Counted from the first letter of the stretch, positions 39,636 through 50,226 are shown. The stretch is 64,000 nt of DNA from an uncultured Acidobacteriota bacterium (GCA_963770895.1 CAVYRF010000002.1:800001-864000); one strand, 5' to 3'. Notes: generated from the letters alone by a model not told the origin. Translations and numbers: made by a program.

Positions 39636-40979
39636 ATGCGGACCCAACGACGCAGCACCGGCCATCGCAGCACCAGCGCCTGGCGCATCCAGCCGCCGGG
39701 GTCGGAGCCGGACACCACCGCCCCGCCAACCAAAAAGCCCAAGAAACAACGGCGCCAGCGGGACCGCAAGGGGCCCGGCCTGGCCGAGCGGCTGCTGGAC
39801 TTCCTGCGCGAATACACCGCGGGCGTCAACACCGGCGAGGTCAAGCGCCTGTTCCGGCGTGACGCCACCAGCGCCTACTCGGTGCTGACCCGCGAGCATG
39901 CCGAGCTGCCGCAGCCGAAGCCCGGTCTCAAGCGCCTGCTGTTCCGCGTCAAGCTCGCCTTCCTGGGTCTGTCCTACAAGCTGACCCCGGCACGGCGGAT
40001 GCTCTTTGCCGCCTCCCTGATCTGCCTGGTCGTGGCGCTCATGTCGGGCAGCTGCCGCGTCGACATGGAGTCGCACCATCGCATCACCCACCTCTCGATC
40101 GACTTCTCGCCGATCCTGTTCGTGGCCTGCGCCGGCGGCCTGGTCTTCCTGCTGGCGCTGGAGCTGGTCGACCGCATCCGCGTGCGCGACGAGCTGGAAG
40201 TGGCGCGCGAGCTGCAGGCCGAGCTGCTGCCGCACGGCACCATCGACCTGCCGGGCTACCGGATCGCCCACTCCTACCGCACCGCCAACGAGGTGGGAGG
40301 CGACTACTACGAGGTGATCCAGCTGCCGGACGGCAGGGTGGCCCTGATGGTCGGCGACGCCACCGGGCACGGCATGGCCGCCGGCCTGGTGATGGCGATC
40401 GCCAACGCCACGCTCAAGACCGCTCTGGACCTGGACCCCGATCCCCGCCGCGTGCTGGCGCTGCTCAATCGCACTCTCTGCCGCACCGGCACCCGCCGCA
40501 CCTTCATGACCGTCTTCTACGCCCTGCTCACCCCCGCCACCGGCGAGCTGGTCGCGATCAGCGCCGGCCACCCCTACCCGGTGCTGCGCCGGGCAGCCGG
40601 CGGCATCGAAGAGCTGGGGCGCGGCGGCCTGCCGCTCGGGGTCCGGGACCACCTGGCGCCCGAGCCGCAGACGACGACGCTCGCGCCTGGCGACATGCTG
40701 CTGCTCTACACCGACGGTCTGGCCGAGGCGATCAACGCCAACTCCGAGGCTTTCGGCTACGACCGCATCGCCTCGCTCACGCGCCTGGGCGGCGCGCCGC
40801 AAGAGGTGCACGACCGCGTGCTGGCAAACTTCGACTTCCACATCGGCGGCGAGCCGCTGCGCGACGACCTCACCCTGCTGGTCGTCGCGCGCGACAGGGC
40901 GGCCCCGACCGCCGCCGTCGGCGCTGCCACCGCCGCCGCTGCCGGGACCGCGGCTCCCCTGCCCGTCGGTCCGGCATGA
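39636..40979 (+). CDS. Membrane-anchored PP2C/SpoIIE-type Ser/Thr phosphatase; start uncertain
   Basis: VGGDYY, GDATGHG, SAGHP, YTDGLAE, DDLT; two TM segments. Confidence 0.88.
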   Translation: MRTQRRSTGHRSTSAWRIQPPGSEPDTTAPPTKKPKKQRRQRDRKGPGLAERLLDFLREYTAGVNTGEVKRLFRRDATSAYSVLTREHAELPQPKPGLKRLLFRVKLAFLGLSYKLTPARRMLFAASLICLVVALMSGSCRVDMESHHRITHLSIDFSPILFVACAGGLVFLLALELVDRIRVRDELEVARELQAELLPHGTIDLPGYRIAHSYRTANEVGGDYYEVIQLPDGRVALMVGDATGHGMAAGLVMAIANATLKTALDLDPDPRRVLALLNRTLCRTGTRRTFMTVFYALLTPATGELVAISAGHPYPVLRRAAGGIEELGRGGLPLGVRDHLAPEPQTTTLAPGDMLLLYTDGLAEAINANSEAFGYDRIASLTRLGGAPQEVHDRVLANFDFHIGGEPLRDDLTLLVVARDRAAPTAAVGAATAAAAGTAAPLPVGPA

Positions 40980-41800
40980 AGCGCGCGACCGGCGGCGATG
41001 TTCGCCGGAGCGACCGCGGCGAGCGGCCGCCGCGGTGGTTCGCCGTGCCGCTGACCGACGCCCTCAACGGCCTGGAGCTGTGCCTGGGCGGCGGCTGGCG
41101 CGGGCTGGCGCTGATCGCCGCCGGGATGCTCGCGGGGTGGTGGGTCTACGTGCCGGTGCACGAGCTGCTGCACGCGGCGGGCTGCTGGCTGGCCGGCGGC
41201 GCGGTGCGGCGGCTGGAGATCGGCACGCTCTACGGCGGCGCGGCGCTGGCCCGCGTGCTGCCCTTTGTCGTCGGCGGCAGCGACTACGCCGGGCGCCTCT
41301 CGGGCTTCGACACCAGGGGCAGCGACCTGGTGTACCTGGCGACCGACCTGTGCCCCTTCCTGCTCAGCGTGTTTCCCGGCGTCTGGTGGTTGCGCCGCGC
41401 CGCCCGCGGCCGCCACCCTGTGCTGTTCGGCGCTTCGCTGCCGGTGGCGCTGGCGCCGTTTCTGTCGCTGACCGGCGACGCCTACGAAATCGGCTCGATC
41501 CTGGTCACCCGGCTGCCGCCCTGGGCGGCGCCCGCGGTGCGCCAGCTGCTGCGCGGGGACGACCTGGGGCTGCGCTGGAGCGCCCTGAGCGCGGCGGCGG
41601 CCGCGTGCGGCGGCAGCGCCGGCGCCGTCAGCGCCGCGCTCGGACCTTGCGCCGCGGCGCTGTCGCGCCTGCGGGAGGGATGCGTGTTGGCCGCGCTGGC
41701 CGGGCTCGGCTGGGCGCTCCTCACCTACGGGTGCGGCGCCGCCGTGGCGCGCGCCGCCGGACAGCCTGCCTTGCGGCCGGCGCCGCCGCCTACTGGCTGA
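40976..41800 (+). CDS. Membrane protein with HExxH motif (putative zinc metalloprotease)
   Basis: PVHELLHAAG; several hydrophobic segments; ATGA overlap with the PP2C gene. Confidence 0.6.
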   Translation: MKRATGGDVRRSDRGERPPRWFAVPLTDALNGLELCLGGGWRGLALIAAGMLAGWWVYVPVHELLHAAGCWLAGGAVRRLEIGTLYGGAALARVLPFVVGGSDYAGRLSGFDTRGSDLVYLATDLCPFLLSVFPGVWWLRRAARGRHPVLFGASLPVALAPFLSLTGDAYEIGSILVTRLPPWAAPAVRQLLRGDDLGLRWSALSAAAAACGGSAGAVSAALGPCAAALSRLREGCVLAALAGLGWALLTYGCGAAVARAAGQPALRPAPPPTG

Positions 41801-42821
41801 GCTTTTCCCAGTCGGCGTCGGGAGCGTCCAGCGAGATCGCCAGGCCGCCGTCCGAACCGGCGAAGACCGGGTCCTTGACCACCCGGACCTTGCCGCCGCC
41901 CACCGCCGCCAGCTCCTGCTCCAGGCGCGGGCCGAGGTTGCGGATCAGGCCGGTGCCGCCCGAAACGATGATGTTGTTGCGCACCTTTTCCTGGTATTCG
42001 GGCTGCACGCGCGACAGCAGGTCGAGCATGCTTTCCACGATCGGCGGCAGCAGCCCCTCGCAGGCCTGGCGCATCTCCTGGGTGATGTCGATCGGCGTCG
42101 GCTTGCCGTTGACCGGCACGGTGACCACCACCGGGTTGCGCGAGGCGCCGACGAAGCTGGCCTCCTCCTTCCACAGGCGCACCATGTGGATCGAAAACCG
42201 CGCCTCGGGAAAGCGCTCGCGCACCAGCCGCGACAGCTGCTCGTCGACCCAGTCGCCGGCCGCGGTCAGGGTGCGCTGGTCTTCTTCGGCCGGCAGGCGG
42301 CCGTTCATGACACAGAAGTCGGTGGTGCCCGCGCCCAGGTCGATGATCATGGTGTGCAGCAGCGCTTCCAGACCGTAGGCGACGGCAAAGGGCTCCGACA
42401 CGATCATCAGGCTGTCCACCGCCCCGGCGATCGCCTTGCGCACGTTCTGCTTGTTGACCCGCAAGGCCTCGGCGGGCACGCCGACCACCGCGCGCACCTT
42501 CATGCCTTCGCGCGTCTCGCGCGCCACGCCGACCAGCGACAGCAGGTGCCACAGCAGCTCGCGCACCGCCGCTTCGTCCTTTTCGGAGCCGTCCTTGATC
42601 AGACCCTGCTCCAGCGGCCGGTGCAGATCGAGCATCGAACGGTTGTCCAACGCCTCGCGGCCGACCAGCACCGGCTTTTTGAGCACCTTGCGCGCCACCA
42701 TGTCGAGCGGCCAGCCGACGTAGCTCTCGACCACGTGGCGCTGGCCGTTGGAGGCGGAGATCGAGCTGCGAGAGGTGCCCAGGTCGATGCCGACATGGAG
42801 GACAGGCCTGGTCTCGGTCAT
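41790..42821 (-). CDS. mamK: MamK-like actin-family ATPase
   Basis: 343 aa from ATG 42821: VGIDLGTSRS, YVGWP.D, RPLEQG, VSEPFAVAYGL, IIDLGAGTTDFC, P.EEDQ.TL..AGD, QPEYQ, SGG, DPVFAG, WEKL, which match MamK-family rather than MreB signatures. Confidence 0.8.
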   Translation of the reverse strand: MTETRPVLHVGIDLGTSRSSISASNGQRHVVESYVGWPLDMVARKVLKKPVLVGREALDNRSMLDLHRPLEQGLIKDGSEKDEAAVRELLWHLLSLVGVARETREGMKVRAVVGVPAEALRVNKQNVRKAIAGAVDSLMIVSEPFAVAYGLEALLHTMIIDLGAGTTDFCVMNGRLPAEEDQRTLTAAGDWVDEQLSRLVRERFPEARFSIHMVRLWKEEASFVGASRNPVVVTVPVNGKPTPIDITQEMRQACEGLLPPIVESMLDLLSRVQPEYQEKVRNNIIVSGGTGLIRNLGPRLEQELAAVGGGKVRVVKDPVFAGSDGGLAISLDAPDADWEKLSQ

Positions 42822-42886
42822 GCGGTCAAATTCCTTTCCGTCCGGCTCGGTGCGCTGCGCGACTGGCCAAGCGGGACACCGGGTGG

Positions 42887-43912
42887 CTAGTGCCCGGCGC
42901 CGCGGGCGGCGCTGGCGTACGCCCGCAGCCCTTCCGCCAGGGCCAGGGCAATATATTGGCGATACAGCGGTTTGGCCAGCAGCTGCGCCTCCTCGTTGTT
43001 GGACAGGCACGACACTTCGGCGAGGATGGCCGGCATCTGCGTCGACAGCAGGACGATGAACGGCGCCGATTTGACGCCGCGGTCCTCCACCTTGGGATTC
43101 ACCTTCCCCAGCGAGCGGAACAGGGACGCCTGGACCATCTGCGCCAGCTGGCGCGACTTGTCCTGGCGCACCCCGGCGTAGATACGGTCGAGCAGCTGGC
43201 GCATGTCGGCCATCGAATAGCCCGAGCCGCGGTTCTCCGAGGCCGCCAGCCGGCTGAGCGCCGGATCGTTGGTAGGTCCCAGGAAGTAGGTTTCGACGCC
43301 GCGCGCCGCGTGGTTCTCGATCCAGTTGACGTGCACCGAAACGAAGACGTCCGCCCCCTGCCGGTTGGCGATCGCGGCGCGCTCGGCCAGCGAGATCGCG
43401 CTGTCGTCGCTGCGGGTCATCACCACCTGGAAGACTCCCTGGTCTTCCAGCAGCTGGCGCAGGCGCTGCGCGATGTCCAGGGTGATGTCTTTTTCGAGCA
43501 CTCCCGAGGGCGTCCGGGTGCCGCGACTGTCGCCGCCGTGGCCGGCATCGATGGCGACCTTGCGCACCGCCAGCGGCAGCACGGCCGCGTCGATCGCCGG
43601 CGCCGGCGACGACAGGCCGGGGATCGCCGCGCCGGGCGACAGGGCCGCGGCCAGTCCGGATGGCGAGGCCGCGGCAGGCACGGTGCGCAGCGCCGGCGGG
43701 TTGGTCCGGCTGCTGAGCAGGCCGGTCGCACCCACCAGCGCGCTGGACACCAGCAGGAGGGCCAGCGCGCCCGCCCAGCGCAGCCGGCGGCGGCGCCCGC
43801 GGGAGCGGCGCACCGCCGCCGCGGCCTGTCCCTGCCACAGCTCGACGTTCTGCTGCACCAGGTCCTGCACCATGCGGCGCTTCACACGATCGAGATTGGG
43901 CTGCGACCACAT
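42887..43912 (-). CDS. N-acetylmuramoyl-L-alanine amidase (Amidase_3), TM-anchored
   Basis: IDAGHGG, EKDITL, MTRSDD, SVHVN, PAILAEVSCLSN; N-terminal TM helix. Confidence 0.92.
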   Translation of the reverse strand: MWSQPNLDRVKRRMVQDLVQQNVELWQGQAAAAVRRSRGRRRRLRWAGALALLLVSSALVGATGLLSSRTNPPALRTVPAAASPSGLAAALSPGAAIPGLSSPAPAIDAAVLPLAVRKVAIDAGHGGDSRGTRTPSGVLEKDITLDIAQRLRQLLEDQGVFQVVMTRSDDSAISLAERAAIANRQGADVFVSVHVNWIENHAARGVETYFLGPTNDPALSRLAASENRGSGYSMADMRQLLDRIYAGVRQDKSRQLAQMVQASLFRSLGKVNPKVEDRGVKSAPFIVLLSTQMPAILAEVSCLSNNEEAQLLAKPLYRQYIALALAEGLRAYASAARGAGH

Positions 43913-43924
43913 ACCGCGCGCCTG

Positions 43925-46249
43925 CTATCGGGTGCCGATGTGGATGCGCAGCTGGCGCGGACCAGGCTCGATGGCGGTGAGCACCGCATCGGGCCGGGCC
44001 AGGTCCAGCACGACGTGCAGTTCCTGCGGCGGATGGTAGCCGGTGCGGATCTGCTGCACCTCGGCGGAGCTGACGCCCAGCCGCGCGCTGGCAAAGGGCC
44101 GCGTGATGCCGCTGATCCTGATCACTTCGCGCGCCGCCGGGCCGGCGATGCGAGCTTCGGTCCAGGTGCCGGCGGCGAACTCGCCGTTGCCCCACAGGGT
44201 CACCACCGTGCCGCCGCCATGGGCCGCTTCCCAGGTGATGCGCTGGATCGCCGTGGCGCGGCCCGCGGCCGCGACGCCAGCCTGGCTGGCGGCAGCCTGC
44301 TGCGACGACGCGGGGGTGGAGTCGGTGGACGAACCCTTGGCGCGCACCAGGGGCGGGGGCGCCACGGCGGCAGATGCCTCCTGCCGCGCGGCGCTCCTGG
44401 CGCCGGGGGCGGGAGCGCTCCCCAGGGCAGCGGTGGCGCCGCCGGCCGCGACGCTCGCGGCAGCCCCGGCGCCGGAGCCGGTCCCGCCGGCAGGCCGGCC
44501 GCTGGGCGATGCCGGAGATGCGGGCGACGGGGTGGCCGCCGCAAGCTGGGCGGCGGCGGACGGCGGCGCGGCCGCGGAGGAGTCCGCGGACGGCGGCGAT
44601 TGCGCACCCTGGCCGGCCCCAGCCGGCGCCGGCGACCGCTGCCGCGACGCTTCCAGGGCAGCGGCCATCTCGGGAGTTGCGGCGGTGTCAGAGGTTGGCG
44701 GAGCCGTGGCGGCGCCGGGGCTGGCCGGGAGGGGGAGCCCCCTGCCGGCTCGGCGGGCCGCGGCACCGGGTCCTGCGGCGGCGTCCAGCGAGCCCGGCAG
44801 CACCGGCTGGCGCGGGTTGCGCCGGGTATGCAGCGCGGGTGCGCCGTCAGCAGGCGGCCCGCCGGCCGTATCCGCCGCGGCAGCGGCACCGCGGTGGTCG
44901 AGCCACTCCAGCACCGAGTCGCGCAGCAGGTAGACCGTCACACCCGCCAGGGCCAGCGCCGCCACCAGCCCGATCAGCGGCGCCCGCGAGCGCCGCCGCG
45001 GCGCGCGGTGGTCGAACGCGGCAAACGCGGGAGGCGGCGCCGCCGGACCCGCGGCCGCCGGCGCCGGCGGCGTCAGATCGTCGAGCGCCGGCAGCGTCGA
45101 AGCCATGTGTACCAACGGATCGACGTCCCCATCGGCGGTGGCGGCGCCGGCCACGGATGCGGGATGCCATGGGTCCGGCGGCGCCGTCGGTTCCTGCGGC
45201 CACCCGGTCGACCGCGCAGCGTCTGGCGCCGGCCAGTCCTGCGTGGGCGCCGCGGCACCTGATGGCCGTGCCTGTGCTGGCGCGGCGGCCCCTGCGGGCC
45301 ACTCTTGCGCCGGCGGCGCGGCATCCGACGGCCAGCCCTGACCTGGGGTGGCGGCACCCGAAGGCCAGCCGTCCGGTGCCGCCGGCGCGGCGCCACCCGC
45401 GGGCCACGCACCCGCCGGCGAAGCATTTTCTGCAGGCCAGGAAGACGGTGCCGCACCGGCGGCGGCCCAGCCTGCCTGCACTGCCGCATGGTCCGGCGCG
45501 GGGCGCCCCGGATGCACCGCGGGATCTGCCAGGCCGGCGACAGCCGGATCCGCCGGCGCCAGGGCTTCCAGGGGCGAGCGGGGGGTGATCGCGGGGATGC
45601 CGGGAACGGGCTGGATCGCCGGAATCTCGACGTGCCAGGGCATCGATGACGGCTCCTGCGCCCGCTGGGGACCCGCGGCAGCGGCGCCGACCTCAGGGGC
45701 CTCAGGGGCCTGAGAGACCTGAGGGGCCTGGGCGGCTGGCGCCGCGGACGGCTGGGCCCCCGGCGGCGCCGCGGCGGCCTGCAGCCCCGCCAGATCGAAC
45801 GGCTTGCCGCCGTGCGCCACGTAGTCGTCCACGATCTTGTAGATCAGGTCCTTGCTGCCGGCGCTGAGCTCGAGAAACCGCACCCCCATGCCGGACGGCC
45901 GCTCCGGCCCTTCCGGCCGCACGCGCGTCCAGACCACTTCGCCGCGGCCGCGGATCAGCTCGAAGCCGTCACCCAGGCGGAATTCGAACTCCAGCAGCTG
46001 TCCCGGCGGCTCGGGCGAATCGGTGCGGATGAAAATGCCGCCTGGCGAGATGTTGGCGACGTACTCGTTGATAAAACCGCTGAAGCGGTCGAATTTCAGC
46101 TGGATGCGGTGAGCGACGGGCACGCGTGTGGAGTCGCGCGGGGAGTTTGAGTAGTCGGGCACCGAGCTACCTTGGAACGGCTCGTCTTGATTGCTGCGGT
46201 CGTCGGGCGCCGCCCATCGTCCCCAGACCTCCGGCCTATCTCCATCCAT
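43925..46249 (-). CDS. PilZ (TIGR02266-like) - Pro/Ala linker - TM - AMIN-like domain protein
   Basis: RDSTR (RxxxR), NISPGGIFI, GEVVW, GMGVRF; TM LIGLVAALALAGVTVYLL; C-terminal VQQIRTG..ELHVVLDL. Confidence 0.8.
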   Translation of the reverse strand: MDGDRPEVWGRWAAPDDRSNQDEPFQGSSVPDYSNSPRDSTRVPVAHRIQLKFDRFSGFINEYVANISPGGIFIRTDSPEPPGQLLEFEFRLGDGFELIRGRGEVVWTRVRPEGPERPSGMGVRFLELSAGSKDLIYKIVDDYVAHGGKPFDLAGLQAAAAPPGAQPSAAPAAQAPQVSQAPEAPEVGAAAAGPQRAQEPSSMPWHVEIPAIQPVPGIPAITPRSPLEALAPADPAVAGLADPAVHPGRPAPDHAAVQAGWAAAGAAPSSWPAENASPAGAWPAGGAAPAAPDGWPSGAATPGQGWPSDAAPPAQEWPAGAAAPAQARPSGAAAPTQDWPAPDAARSTGWPQEPTAPPDPWHPASVAGAATADGDVDPLVHMASTLPALDDLTPPAPAAAGPAAPPPAFAAFDHRAPRRRSRAPLIGLVAALALAGVTVYLLRDSVLEWLDHRGAAAAADTAGGPPADGAPALHTRRNPRQPVLPGSLDAAAGPGAAARRAGRGLPLPASPGAATAPPTSDTAATPEMAAALEASRQRSPAPAGAGQGAQSPPSADSSAAAPPSAAAQLAAATPSPASPASPSGRPAGGTGSGAGAAASVAAGGATAALGSAPAPGARSAARQEASAAVAPPPLVRAKGSSTDSTPASSQQAAASQAGVAAAGRATAIQRITWEAAHGGGTVVTLWGNGEFAAGTWTEARIAGPAAREVIRISGITRPFASARLGVSSAEVQQIRTGYHPPQELHVVLDLARPDAVLTAIEPGPRQLRIHIGTR

Positions 46250-46430
46250 GCGCGTCGGCCGATAATACCAGCATCGCCGCCCCGAATGGGCTGTTGGCGG
46301 GTGTGCTAGAGTTCAGCTCCCTTTCGAGGGGCGTTCGCACTCCCCTCAATCCCCCTGTCGGGATCGATCATGATCGCAGCAAGGATCGTCGGCGGCTCGC
46401 CACGGGCAGACCGCCGTGGAGTGACTTGGG

Positions 46431-47567
46431 ATGGCCAGAAAGCGCGTGGTGATTGCTGGCGCCGGCGGTATGGGCAGCGCCGTAGCCCTGTTATTGCGGG
46501 AGCTGGGCGACTTCGAAGTGGACCTGTTTCTCGGCGACTCGGACAGGGAACGGGCGGAGCTGGCGGCGGCCTGGGTGCGCGAAGGCTCCACCCAGCCCGG
46601 CGAGGTGCGGTCGTTTCACATGCCGGTCGACGCCACGTCGCCGGGCCTGGCGGCGGCCCTGGACAGCGCCGACCTGCTGCTCGACTGCCTGCCGGGCAAG
46701 GAAGCGCCGCGCATGGCGCAGCTGGCCTGCGAACACCACCTCCACTATGCCAACCTGACGGAGCATGTGCGCGAAACCAATGAGATCGTCAAGATCGCGG
46801 CTGGGTCCGACATGGGCTTCGTCCTGCAGACCGGCCTCGCTCCGGGCTTCATCAACGTGCTGGCCAACGGTCTGTTTCAGCGCTTCTGCCGCGAAAACGG
46901 CGTCGACAAAGCCGACGTCGTGGCCATGCGGGTGGGGGCGCTCAGCACCACCGCCCGGCCGCCGCACTACTACGGCTTCACCTGGAGCTCGATCGGCGTG
47001 GCCACGGAGTACGTCGAGCCGGCCACCGTGGTGCGCGAGGGCAAGCGCACCACCCGGCCGTCGCTGTCCGACCGTGAAACCATCCTGATCCACGGGGTGG
47101 TCTACGAAGAAGCGCTGACCTCCGGCGGCGCCGCCGATCTGCCGCAGGTCCTGGCCGGCCGGGTCGGCCGGCTCGACTACAAGACCCTGCGCTATCCCGG
47201 CCACTATGCCTGGGTGCAATCGATCCTCGACGAAGCGCCGGCCGGCGCCGACCGGGCCGAATACCTTCTGCGCCGCATGGAGCACGAAGTGCCCTTTGTC
47301 GACGACGACCTGGTGACCACCTATGCGGCCGTCGAAGGACGGACCGCGGACGGCAGCCTGCGCCGGCTCGAGGACGCGCGGGTGATCCGCCCCCTGCGGA
47401 TCGGCGCCCGCACCCTCAAGGCGATCCAGGCGACCACGGCGGCGGGGCTGGCCGAGTCCGCCCGCCTGCTGCTGCGGGGGGACTGCAAAGGGGTCTGCCT
47501 GCAGAGCCAGATCGATCCTCCAGAGTTCATGCATGGGCCGTTTGTCAGCACCATTTACGGCGCTTGA
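46431..47567 (+). CDS. Saccharopine/lysine dehydrogenase family protein
   Basis: IAGAGGMG, QTGLAPG, RVGAL, TWS, TSGG, YKTLRYPGH. Confidence 0.85.
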   Translation: MARKRVVIAGAGGMGSAVALLLRELGDFEVDLFLGDSDRERAELAAAWVREGSTQPGEVRSFHMPVDATSPGLAAALDSADLLLDCLPGKEAPRMAQLACEHHLHYANLTEHVRETNEIVKIAAGSDMGFVLQTGLAPGFINVLANGLFQRFCRENGVDKADVVAMRVGALSTTARPPHYYGFTWSSIGVATEYVEPATVVREGKRTTRPSLSDRETILIHGVVYEEALTSGGAADLPQVLAGRVGRLDYKTLRYPGHYAWVQSILDEAPAGADRAEYLLRRMEHEVPFVDDDLVTTYAAVEGRTADGSLRRLEDARVIRPLRIGARTLKAIQATTAAGLAESARLLLRGDCKGVCLQSQIDPPEFMHGPFVSTIYGA

Positions 47568-47844: not shown

Positions 47845-50058
47845 CTACTCGCGAATACAGGAATTCCATTCAGATTGCGTGCCAGCGCCGCCGCCAGAGA
47901 CCATCGTTGCCGTCGGCGCGGCCGGCAGGTCGAGCGCCGGCAGCAGGTCGGCGCGCACCGCCACCAGCGGCCACACGGCCGGCCACGGCAGGCGGCGAAA
48001 CAGGTGCAGCGACGTCGACTGCGTGAACCCGGCGGTGTCGATGCCCAGGGCCAGGCTGCGACGGGGGCCCAGGCGCGCCGCCGGCTGCGGCGCCGCGGCG
48101 AGCAGCGCCAGCTTCCAGCCGGGATCGACGCCGGGCCAGCGCCGCACCTCCTCCATGGCATGGCGGAACAGCGGTTCGCGCCCCTCCCACACCGCCGCCG
48201 CGGCCAGCCGCGGCTCCGCCAGCAGGGCGTGCGCCGCCAGGCGCGGCGCCAGCGGCGCGTCCGGCTGCGCCACGGCGAGATAGAACGGCGGATAGGGAGA
48301 CAGAGGGTCGAGGGCGCAGGCCTCCTGGAGCGCCGCCGGCGCCCACACCTCGCCGGCCGATCGACCCAGGATGCCGGCCACCAGCCACAGCAGCCCCACC
48401 CCCCTCGCCTCCCGCGCCGCCGTCACGGCCAGGGCGGCGGCCGCGCCGCGCTCGTCCTGGCGGTCGGCCCGCAGCAGCGCCAGCCGCATGCGGTACAGCG
48501 GGAACGCCGGGTCCAGGTGCACGGCGGCCGCCAGCTCCTCGATCGCCGCCCGGCGGCGCCCCTCCTCGCCCGCGACGACCGCCCGGTCATAGTGCCGGCG
48601 CGCCATCTCCGGCGCCAGCAGGGCCGTGGCCGCCAGCAGCCCATACGCAATCCGCGCCAGGCTGGGCACCCCGCCGGCGCCAGCGGTTGCGGAGCGCCCG
48701 GCGGCGCTGGCGCGCCCCACCCTCTCAGGCGGGTCGGCGACAGCACCGGCGGCCCCGCCCGCGGCGGTCTGGCGCTGGCGATCGGCGACGGCGCTGCCCG
48801 CCGCCACACCGCCGGCCAGGGCGGCGCCCGCCGCCACCACCATCGCCATCGGCAAAGCCGCCACCGCCAGGGCAGCGGTGCTCAGCCAGGCGACACCGCC
48901 GCCGGCCAGCCCCAGGCAGCCGGCGGCGAGCAGGTCGGGGTCGCACGCGGCGTGGCGCTCCCGCCAGCGCCGCGCTACGAAGAGCGCGGCGACGGCGGCC
49001 GCGGCGGCCAGCCCCAGCGCGCCCGTCTCGTAGGCCAGCTCGACGGGCAGCGAATGCAGCTCCCCCACCGCCTCGCCCCAGGGGTTGAGGCCGGGCCGCG
49101 GGACCAGGAACCACGCCGCCGTCCATGCCGCCGATCCGGGCCCCCACCCAAGCCAGGGGCGTTCGCGCCAACCTTCCCAACCGGCACGCAGATAGACCGC
49201 CCGCGCCGCCGCCGAAGGGTCGCGCCCTGAGCCGATGCGGCGCATCCGCGCCAGCTGCCCCGCCGCCAGCGCCGCGGCGAGCAGCAGCAACCCGGCCGCC
49301 ACCCGCCACGCCCGCCACGACCGCCCCTGCCGCCAATGCCGCCAGCCCTGCCAACCCCGCCAGCCCTGCCAACGCCGGGCGTGCACCCCACCGCCGTCGC
49401 CGCCGGCGCCAAACCAGACCGCCGCCAACACCGCTTCCGCGGTGAGCGCCAGGCCGCCGCCGAGCGATCGGCCGGCGATCGTCGCCGCCAGACCGGCGGC
49501 GCCCGCGGCAGCCCCCAGCAGGCGCCAGACGGAGCCTTCCCGAATGGGAAGCAGGGCGAGCGGTAGCAGCAGCGCCAGCCAGGTGGCGAGCAGGGTGTGA
49601 TGCCCGAGCGGCGCCAGCGTGGCGGCCAGGCCGCGCGCCGGCGTGCCGCCCGGCACCAGCGCCCACACCGACAGGGCCAGCACCGCCGCCGCGGCGCACC
49701 GGCCGCCCCAGCGGCGCGACGCCTCCAGCAGCCAGCAGCGCGCGATCGCGCCCGGCAAAAACAGGTAGGCCGGCAGCAGGGCCACCGCCTGCAGTCCGGC
49801 GCGCGGCACCGGCGACACCCAGGCGCTGGCCGCAACCGCCAGCCACAGCGCCGCCGGCGCGGCGCGGGACCAGCCACCCAGACGCAACGGGTCGTGCCAC
49901 GGCGCCGGCGAAGCCGTCTGCGCCGCCAGCACCGCCACCAGCGCCACCGCGCTGCCGGCGGCGGTCACCCCGCCCAACAGGTTGCCGCACCAGCCGGCAA
50001 ACAGTGCCGCCAGCAGCAGCGGCAGCACCCCACGCATCCCGGCGAACATCGCGCCCAT
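47845..50058 (-). CDS. O-antigen ligase (Wzy_C) family membrane protein with TPR-like C-terminus
   Basis: Many TM segments; SAAARAVY, RPWLGWGPG, LHSLPVELAYETGALG; likely ATG 50058, 7 nt after TAGAAT. Confidence 0.75.
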   Translation of the reverse strand: MGAMFAGMRGVLPLLLAALFAGWCGNLLGGVTAAGSAVALVAVLAAQTASPAPWHDPLRLGGWSRAAPAALWLAVAASAWVSPVPRAGLQAVALLPAYLFLPGAIARCWLLEASRRWGGRCAAAAVLALSVWALVPGGTPARGLAATLAPLGHHTLLATWLALLLPLALLPIREGSVWRLLGAAAGAAGLAATIAGRSLGGGLALTAEAVLAAVWFGAGGDGGGVHARRWQGWRGWQGWRHWRQGRSWRAWRVAAGLLLLAAALAAGQLARMRRIGSGRDPSAAARAVYLRAGWEGWRERPWLGWGPGSAAWTAAWFLVPRPGLNPWGEAVGELHSLPVELAYETGALGLAAAAAVAALFVARRWRERHAACDPDLLAAGCLGLAGGGVAWLSTAALAVAALPMAMVVAAGAALAGGVAAGSAVADRQRQTAAGGAAGAVADPPERVGRASAAGRSATAGAGGVPSLARIAYGLLAATALLAPEMARRHYDRAVVAGEEGRRRAAIEELAAAVHLDPAFPLYRMRLALLRADRQDERGAAAALAVTAAREARGVGLLWLVAGILGRSAGEVWAPAALQEACALDPLSPYPPFYLAVAQPDAPLAPRLAAHALLAEPRLAAAAVWEGREPLFRHAMEEVRRWPGVDPGWKLALLAAAPQPAARLGPRRSLALGIDTAGFTQSTSLHLFRRLPWPAVWPLVAVRADLLPALDLPAAPTATMVSGGGAGTQSEWNSCIRE

Positions 50059-50226
50059 CGCGGCCATTCTACGCGCCGCATGCTGGCAGCGCCTGCACTC
50101 CGCCGCCCGCCGGGGCGCGGCCGGCGTCGCAGAACTGCGATATTCTCGCCGTCCGGCGCTTCACGCCGCCGGCCTTTCCCGCGGGCGCGCCGCGCAGCGC
50201 GCCCCGACACCGTTGGAGACCTGAAC

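Follow-up and report, generated by a model that had tools for sequence, protein, structure and literature searches.

Analysis of a 64,000-nucleotide (nt) stretch of DNA from an uncultured Acidobacteriota bacterium (GCA_963770895.1, CAVYRF010000002.1:800001-864000; hereafter the window) reveals a conserved two-gene cytoskeleton–hydrolase module, in which an actin of the MamK family is encoded directly behind a membrane-anchored peptidoglycan amidase. The actin gene (41790-42821, minus strand) encodes 343 amino acids (aa), and the amidase gene (42887-43912, minus strand) encodes a bitopic N-acetylmuramoyl-L-alanine amidase of 341 aa. A third gene, at 43925-46249 on the minus strand, precedes them and encodes a protein with a PilZ domain, a transmembrane (TM) helix and an AMIN-fold domain (PilZ-TM-AMIN, or PilZ-AMIN for short). 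A first-pass annotation of this stretch had described three co-oriented genes separated by 12 nt (PilZ gene to amidase) and 65 nt (amidase to actin), and both the shared strand and the gaps are as described. It had read them as one candidate system for local wall cutting gated by cyclic di-GMP (c-di-GMP). Here we show that the amidase–actin pair is the core and that it spans several phyla, and we read the PilZ-AMIN protein as a lineage-specific accessory. Our preferred interpretation, to which we assign a probability of roughly 0.6, is that the actin filament recruits and positions a regulated amidase through a short cytoplasmic tail of the enzyme, and that cutting takes place only where a periplasmic activator frees the enzyme's blocking helix.

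The arrangement of the two core genes is conserved across Acidobacteriota far beyond chance. The actin is present in 60/61 genomes of the window's order (E ≤ 1e-40, 64–92% identity) and in 30/401 genomes of an even sample of the phylum, which includes one unpublished genome (G083) with no actin match. Among these 30 positives, 17 belong to the window's order (all of its positives), 8 to other orders of the class and 5 to other classes. The 40 loci that we fetched represent 12 families of the window's order as well as further orders of its class and further classes, and in 40/40 the amidase gene immediately precedes the actin gene on the same strand (one locus is clipped by a contig end). In several of them the amidase frame stops at the actin start codon or a few nt from it. 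For Acidobacteriota, the neighborhood survey proposed in the first-pass annotation finds that the adjacency of amidase and actin holds in related genomes.

The pair also extends beyond the phylum. Only 186 clusters (50% identity) among 1.84 billion representatives match the actin at E ≤ 1e-30, and names on some of them include Nitrospira sp., Verrucomicrobiota, Gemmatimonadota and ANME-2. Metagenome contigs were scanned with an alignment of 13 diverse relatives, and the 80 loci kept were grouped by their score against a hidden Markov model (HMM) of the window-clade actins. Group A, the window's own clade, comprises 40 loci scoring at least 560 bits, with the amidase upstream in 35/35 loci that have upstream DNA. 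Group B, a second clade, comprises 29 loci at 440–525 bits and has the amidase upstream in 27/28. Exact look-up of group B proteins at NCBI returned the names Desulfobacterales bacterium, Deltaproteobacteria bacterium, Desulfatitalea sp. and Nitrospirota bacterium. Group C holds 11 more distant MamK-like actins below 425 bits, and an upstream amidase is found in 0/8 of those with upstream DNA. Clustering of flanking open reading frames (ORFs) in the Acidobacteriota and group B loci found no conserved third gene besides PilZ-AMIN; most of the recurring flanking clusters in either clade are antisense shadow ORFs.

Actins linked to an amidase form a single clade. We inferred a tree of 112 rows with a quick IQ-TREE search, using the 40 fetched actins, group B and C actins of near-full HMM coverage, 34 representatives and the genome's own MreB; additional group A metagenome rows and partial actins were left out. 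All 68 amidase-linked actins fall in one 71-row clade (Shimodaira–Hasegawa-like approximate likelihood ratio test 100), which also contains two representatives that come without genomic context (P0128 and P0172) and one unlinked locus (L192). The other eight unlinked loci and 32 representatives lie outside it.

MamK-like actins outside the linked clade show other contexts and architectures. Group C loci have other neighbors, and several carry an unannotated ORF upstream. In two loci a different unannotated ORF lies directly upstream, on the same strand, of an amidase-less MamK-like actin (L235:3901-4875 and L214:2566-3342) and may encode another partner; in L235, PSD1/PSCyt genes of planctomycete type lie close by. 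In one 768-aa representative (P0193), a complete FtsZ (residues 4-307, with Tubulin and FtsZ_C domains) is joined to a MamK-like actin (residues 435-753). Many other MamK-like actins, such as P0139-P0155 and similar entries, are 700–1232 aa long, with N-terminal extensions of 375–900 residues that have no Pfam match.

The amidase combines a catalytic domain of the AmiA/AmiB/AmiC type with a membrane anchor. The first-pass annotation had called it an Amidase_3 enzyme with a TM anchor, and both parts are confirmed. The Amidase_3 domain (PF01520; 42914-43558, minus strand, about residues 119-333) scores 168.6 bits over residues 119-330, above the cut-off, and one TM helix (43709-43777, minus strand, about residues 46-68) follows a polybasic stretch. 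Residues 1-44 are cytoplasmic (a helix, then RRSRGRRRRLR); beyond the TM helix, a linker rich in Pro and Ala leads to the catalytic domain. AmiA (8C2O), AmiB (3NE8) and AmiC (4BIN) each align with the window protein from end to end; amidases that lack the regulatory insert align partially (4RN7 in two pieces, CwlV 1JWQ over the first half only). We also weighed the spore CwlD and LytH types, because both are TM-anchored, and rejected them: CwlD (7RAG) and LytH (7TJ4) align over the first half only, without the regulatory insert, and the CwlD model gives 114 bits against a cut-off of 221. The window amidase has no fused AMIN domain and, with its N-terminal cytoplasmic tail and single TM helix, is not the soluble periplasmic form. 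The two other Amidase_3 proteins of the genome (528 and 944 aa) do not carry an AMIN domain either.

Catalytic and regulatory residues of the amidase are retained throughout. Seven residues (H125, E140, H194, N196, E226, N227 and E299) are invariant in 40/40 orthologs. In the alignment with 8C2O, read against the residue roles given in PMC10268282, H125, E140 and H194 correspond to the AmiA zinc ligands His65, Glu80 and His133. A regulatory insert (43163-43270, minus strand, about residues 215-250) carries the blocking-helix residue E226 and a hydrophobic interaction helix. E226 aligns with Glu167 of AmiA, the latch of the blocking helix, and L240, L241, I244, Y245 and V248 align with L184, L185, V188, L189 and L192 of the AmiA interaction helix, the hydrophobic face of which binds the LytM activator according to the same source. 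Because the zinc ligands, the catalytic Glu (E299) and the blocking-helix Glu are all kept, the window amidase is probably active and autoinhibited.

The cytoplasmic tail of the amidase is conserved and is predicted to bind the actin. A putative actin-binding helix lies at 43832-43891 on the minus strand (about residues 8-27, LDRVKRRMVQDLVQQNVELW). The tail motif occurs in all 39 complete Acidobacteriota orthologs, with N22 nearly invariant, and group B amidases have a like tail (consensus near ILRGVYEDNLRI) that leads through basic residues into a TM helix. Complex prediction from the actin alignment and amidase residues 1-46 (40 rows each, in the same locus order) gave scores of 0.89, 0.90 and 0.89, as compared with 0.00 for the best of three controls. 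The score mark was passed by 58/80 solved complexes and 2/110 mismatched pairs, counts that are only rough because our own alignments were used as input. The three runs share at least 87% of contacts, and the partner has a predicted local distance difference test (pLDDT) value of at least 70. Tail residues 10-26 contact actin residues 116-128, 138-155, 166-187, 260, 264 and 329-341, which presumably form the cleft between subdomains IA and IIA in the usual actin domain map. The nearly invariant N22 is predicted to contact residues 138-140 and 341. The first-pass annotation had suggested modeling the actin with the cytoplasmic regions of its partners, and for the amidase the model favored contact, so that binding of the tail to the actin is supported as a prediction. 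Together, the conserved adjacency, the conserved tail and the predicted binding support the idea that actin and amidase work together.

The actin belongs to the MamK family and is not the cell's MreB. Against NCBIfam models it scores 371 bits to MamK (NF040964, curated cut-off 400 bits; E 4.9e-111, residues 8-342), 202 to BeeR and 70 to MreB. Among solved structures, MamK 5LJW matches over the full length with E 1.3e-77, as compared with 1.1e-37 for BeeR 8R2N and 6e-11 for MreB; the match to MamK scores 264 bits, with about 50% identity by eye. D13, G15, T16, E143, D161, G163 and D168 are invariant in 40/40 actins, and G165 and T166 are conserved in at least 90%. The invariant set includes phosphate-binding and nucleotide-binding motifs, as well as E143, which we take to be the ATPase residue of MamK. 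With MamK as its closest solved relative and the ATPase motifs kept, the MamK-type assignment of the first-pass annotation stands. A role apart from magnetosomes, also part of that annotation, agrees with the presence of the actin in all but one genome of a soil order and with the window neighbors, among which no magnetosome-like gene adjoins the actin (no genome-wide search for mam genes was made). A true MreB (PF06723, 484 bits) lies elsewhere in the genome, in an operon at G000:C2:1690653-1695991, and is followed there by mreC, mreD, a class-B penicillin-binding protein gene (pbp2) and rodA. The window actin, which shares 31% identity with it, is therefore an additional actin. We rejected an identity as the rod-type MreB on these grounds and on the closer kinship to MamK. 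Public records name the window actin and its relatives rod shape-determining protein MreB, and for the window actin this label is wrong.

The third protein is predicted to join a cytoplasmic sensor-like domain to a periplasmic AMIN-type fold. Its PilZ domain (45836-46138, minus strand, residues 38-138) matches PF07238 with 48.1 bits (cut-off 22.5) and TIGR02266 with 72.7 bits (cut-off 68.7), and the translation contains both c-di-GMP motifs that had been claimed for it, RxxxR as RDSTR and NxSxxG as NISPGG. Across 13 orthologs, the N, S and G of NxSxxG and the second R of RxxxR are invariant (13/13), and the first R has the canonical spacing in 10/13. The single TM helix of the first-pass annotation is likewise recovered: a Kyte–Doolittle scan and composition give one hydrophobic segment (44915-44980, minus strand, about residues 424-445), preceded by the polybasic stretch RRRSR. 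It is flanked by an Ala/Pro-rich linker of ~280 aa on the cytoplasmic side and an Ala/Pro/Gly/Ser-rich one of ~210 aa on the periplasmic side. By the positive-inside rule, the PilZ domain would be cytoplasmic and the C-terminal domain periplasmic. The gene spans 774 aa when counted from ATG 46249, but it probably starts at GTG 46162, giving 745 aa, since the ortholog in L050 starts MPDYSN right after a stop codon and an AAGG lies 9 nt upstream of this GTG.

Structure prediction and orthologs identify the C-terminal domain (43928-44269, minus strand, residues 661-774) as AMIN-like. In the window copy, Pfam AMIN (PF11741) finds no match in this domain even at E ≤ 5, and it matches 6/14 orthologous C-terminal domains with a best E of 1.1e-5. 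An AlphaFold2 model from a 14-row alignment has pLDDT 93.7, and its top four Foldseek hits in the PDB are the AMIN domains of AmiC 4BIN and PilQ 4AV2, 3JC8 and 4AQZ (template modeling score 0.61–0.66, E 2.7e-3 to 5e-2, none at or below 1e-3). An HMM of the PilZ-AMIN subfamily also recovers the PilQ-like AMIN of the genome (E 1.2e-5), in the same PilQ-like ORF that is the only PF11741 match in the genome. The AMIN-like domain proposed in the first-pass annotation is upheld by the modeled fold, alongside the sequence matches of some orthologs.

PilZ-AMIN frequently accompanies the pair in the window's order but does not belong to the universal core. With the subfamily HMM it is recovered in 58/61 genomes of the order, and coordinate comparison places it on the actin's contig within 6 kb in 41/61. 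In the window's family it lies within 6 kb of the actin in 32/37 genomes; in four of the other five the contig ends next to the actin, which hides part of the neighborhood. Only one genome of the order is without the actin (G060, 98% complete), and it is also without PilZ-AMIN. In the 40 fetched loci, PilZ-AMIN is the only further recurrent neighbor and occurs near the actin in 13. Twelve of these 13 encode a single protein (one split over two frames), and L132 has a separate AMIN protein after the actin. Gene order differs by family: PilZ-AMIN is upstream of the amidase in L032, L035, L046 and L048-L051 and lies at a distance of ~4 kb on that side in L033; in L039, L040, L043 and L045 it follows the actin. 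The split case is L051:10232-11700, where PilZ and AMIN are encoded in separate, overlapping frames, possibly through a frameshift or an assembly error. Where the gene is unlinked to the pair, the PilZ-to-AMIN architecture is still present in 9/10 loci, and family f2 (L157, L158 and L159) has a tandem pair of PilZ-TM-AMIN genes. In the phylum sample, PilZ-AMIN matches at E ≤ 1e-12 occur in 25/401 genomes. Twenty of these score at least 70 bits, and 18/20 are actin-positive; the five weaker matches are in ORFs of 868–1115 aa, the size of PilQ. We found no PilZ or AMIN match within 5 kb in 28 group B loci. The first-pass annotation had made PilZ-TM-AMIN an obligatory part of the system, and this is not supported, because many other carriers of the pair are without it.

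These results suggest how the module may operate. The MamK-family actin would polymerize at the cytoplasmic face of the inner membrane, and the short N-terminal helix of the amidase would dock in the IA/IIA cleft, so that the filament would set the periplasmic position of the enzyme. The blocking helix would keep the AmiA/B/C-type catalytic domain inactive, and cutting probably begins only once a periplasmic activator has moved this helix aside. In the window's order, PilZ-TM-AMIN would be a third, accessory component, with its periplasmic AMIN domain binding peptidoglycan, by analogy with the AMIN domains of AmiC and PilQ, and its cytoplasmic PilZ domain reporting c-di-GMP. That c-di-GMP really controls the system is a tentative suggestion that we consider doubtful. 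The process served may be cell separation, maturation of poles or septa, or local control of shape.

Several observations weigh against this interpretation or parts of it. The actin score falls short of the curated NF040964 cut-off, the support for the linked clade comes from a quick tree search, and L192, inside that clade, has no amidase within 5 kb upstream. The zinc ligand Asp135 of AmiA is Asn196 here in 40/40 orthologs, and autoinhibition may therefore differ in detail. The predicted tail–actin binding comes from a single structure-prediction job, and part of the score may reflect likeness, since solved complexes already show similar helices in the groove of an actin-fold protein. For the accessory protein, canonical RxxxR spacing is absent in 3/13 orthologs, the gene is unlinked to the pair in families f2, f5, f7, f8 and f11, matches of at least 70 bits occur in two actin-negative genomes (G200 and G423), and in the phylum sample such a match is missing from 12/30 actin-positive genomes.

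Alternative explanations differ in the roles they give to the accessory protein and to the filament. In its full form, the model of the first-pass annotation is an obligatory three-part machine in which PilZ-TM-AMIN, as the c-di-GMP switch, gates wall cutting directed by the filament. The contiguity of the three genes here and in most of the window's family, the persistence of PilZ-AMIN beside the pair despite rearranged gene order, its invariant NxSxxG and mostly retained RxxxR, and the joint absence of actin and PilZ-AMIN from G060 are all consistent with such a machine. Yet the pair occurs without a linked PilZ-AMIN in 27/40 fetched loci and, within 5 kb, in all 28 group B loci, and the 12 actin-positive genomes just mentioned point the same way, so we judge an obligatory switch rather unlikely. 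A more dynamic alternative, which we regard as unlikely, is that the pair is a ParMRC-like cytomotive machine with a wall enzyme as its cargo. In other actins, monomers and one end of the filament are the only known places where the IA/IIA cleft stands open. If this also applies to the window actin, the tails of the amidase would follow or cap the ends at which a treadmilling MamK-type filament grows, and ATP-driven polymerization would carry the autoinhibited amidase along the membrane, patterning stem-peptide removal in the sacculus; in the window's order, c-di-GMP would set the anchoring of the tracks via PilZ-AMIN.

The amidase could instead serve mainly as an anchor, its tail fixing the filament at the membrane while the periplasmic domain holds on to the wall, and the filament would have a different main task, for example the positioning of an organelle, an inclusion or DNA. 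Positioning of cargo is known for MamK-family filaments, binding of the tail is predicted either way, and MamK-like actins outside the linked clade have other, unannotated upstream genes. But the zinc ligands, catalytic Glu and autoinhibitory Glu are invariant in 40/40 orthologs, which fits selection on regulated catalysis rather than on binding alone, and flanking-ORF clustering found no conserved cargo gene nearby; a mere anchor is in our view distinctly unlikely. Least of all do we expect the two genes to be co-regulated neighbors in wall metabolism whose products make no physical contact, with the actin a second MreB-like or FtsA-like protein. The MreB label in public records and a Pfam MreB_Mbl match of 74 bits are what such an account can draw on, and against it stand the 31% identity to a real MreB that has its own mreBCD-pbp2-rodA operon, the MamK kinship of the actin and the complex prediction with its controls and benchmark counts. 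It would also leave the conserved cytoplasmic tail of a periplasmic enzyme unexplained. Positioning of a regulated amidase by the actin filament remains our preferred reading of the pair.

The three-gene unit is bounded on both sides by genes on the opposite strand. The window has a G+C content of ~70% and belongs to a genome of 8.16 Mb in 3 contigs. Around the actin locus lie genes for a PP2C phosphatase, an acyltransferase and a saccharopine dehydrogenase-like protein. The last (46431-47567) is divergent from the unit, beginning at 46431, and is its upstream neighbor. The intergenic region between them (46250-46430) contains a TATTAT at 46262-46267 on the minus strand, spotted by eye only. 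Consensus scans returned neither a promoter ahead of the PilZ gene nor a terminator in either gap (12 and 65 nt), results that are weak evidence either way at 70% G+C. On the other side, an unannotated ORF of 274 aa (40976-41800, plus strand) is convergent with the actin gene, ending at 41800 with a 3′ overlap of 11 nt. It has no Pfam or NCBIfam match, and an ORF with 57–68% identity occupies the same position in L049 and L051. Its start is overlapped by the stop of the gene for the PP2C (SpoIIE-domain) phosphatase (39636-40979). Farther away, a 740-aa Wzy_C (O-antigen ligase-like) protein is encoded at 47845-50067 on the minus strand, in the most G+C-rich stretch of the window (79%).

The actin–amidase pair looks like an undescribed way of steering wall remodeling. 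The first-pass annotation did not recognize the combination as a described system, and this agrees with the literature searched, where we found no description of an actin–amidase pair; supplementary tables of the BeeR, LmdC and Mad28 papers, which may hold gene neighborhoods, lay outside that search. MamK-like actins outside magnetotactic bacteria have so far been without an assigned function or partner. One whole clade of them gains here a conserved partner, a predicted binding element of ~20 residues and a testable job, that of placing a regulated peptidoglycan amidase, and a widespread annotation error, the MreB label on the actins of this clade, is corrected. Judging by record names, at least Acidobacteriota, Desulfobacterota and Nitrospirota carry members of the clade, and some cultivable hosts may be among them. 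If the proposed mechanism is true, it would add a second route beside FtsEX–EnvC for cytoplasmic control of periplasmic amidases.

Known bacterial actins and amidases each share part of this design. MamK of magnetotactic bacteria (5LJW, 5JYG, 5LJV) is the best sequence relative of the window actin, with the actin fold and nucleotide-binding motifs kept. The window actin differs in lying outside a magnetosome gene cluster, in scoring below the NCBIfam cut-off and in belonging to a separate, well-supported clade marked by an upstream amidase. Another likeness is with ParM–ParR, in which the C-terminal helix of ParR sits in the IA/IIA cleft of the bacterial actin ParM; a partner helix in a bacterial-actin cleft is common to both systems, whereas the families and the cargo differ. 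Mad28, the second actin of deep-branching magnetotactic bacteria, is described as a 42.6-kDa protein encoded in the magnetosome island. BeeR of Verrucomicrobiota, the function of which is stated to be unknown (PMC11929497), and saltatorellin, for which a role is only hypothesized (bioRxiv 10.1101/817700), are, like the window actin, MamK relatives in non-magnetotactic bacteria without a known function or partner, and the available parts of these two papers mention no amidase partner. The window actin scores 202 bits to BeeR as compared with 371 to MamK, and it lacks the disordered N-terminal extension of BeeR. With AmiA, AmiB and AmiC and their LytM activators (PNAS 2023, PMC10268282), the window amidase shares the catalytic domain and a regulatory insert with a zinc-latching blocking-helix Glu and a hydrophobic interaction helix. 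It differs from these soluble periplasmic enzymes in being membrane-anchored with a cytoplasmic tail, in the Asn at the position of Asp135, and in that AMIN is found here on a separate PilZ-TM protein.

The closest functional analogue is the bactofilin BacA with LmdC, studied in Hyphomonas neptunium and Rhodospirillum rubrum (eLife 2024, PMC10945521). LmdC is a bitopic M23 peptidase that binds BacA through its residues 1-38 and takes its position from the polymer; in many species the two genes lie side by side. In both systems, the gene for the polymer neighbors that for a bitopic peptidoglycan hydrolase, the two are widely conserved together, and a short N-terminal cytoplasmic tail of the hydrolase is the polymer-binding element, by prediction in the case described here. 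They differ in the polymer, an ATP-dependent actin here as opposed to a nucleotide-independent bactofilin; in the enzyme, an Amidase_3 protein as opposed to an M23 peptidase; and in the tail, a helix with predicted, not measured, binding as opposed to the β-hairpin of LmdC. If the tail does bind as predicted, the MamK-family actin and its amidase would be the actin-based counterpart of the bactofilin–LmdC module.

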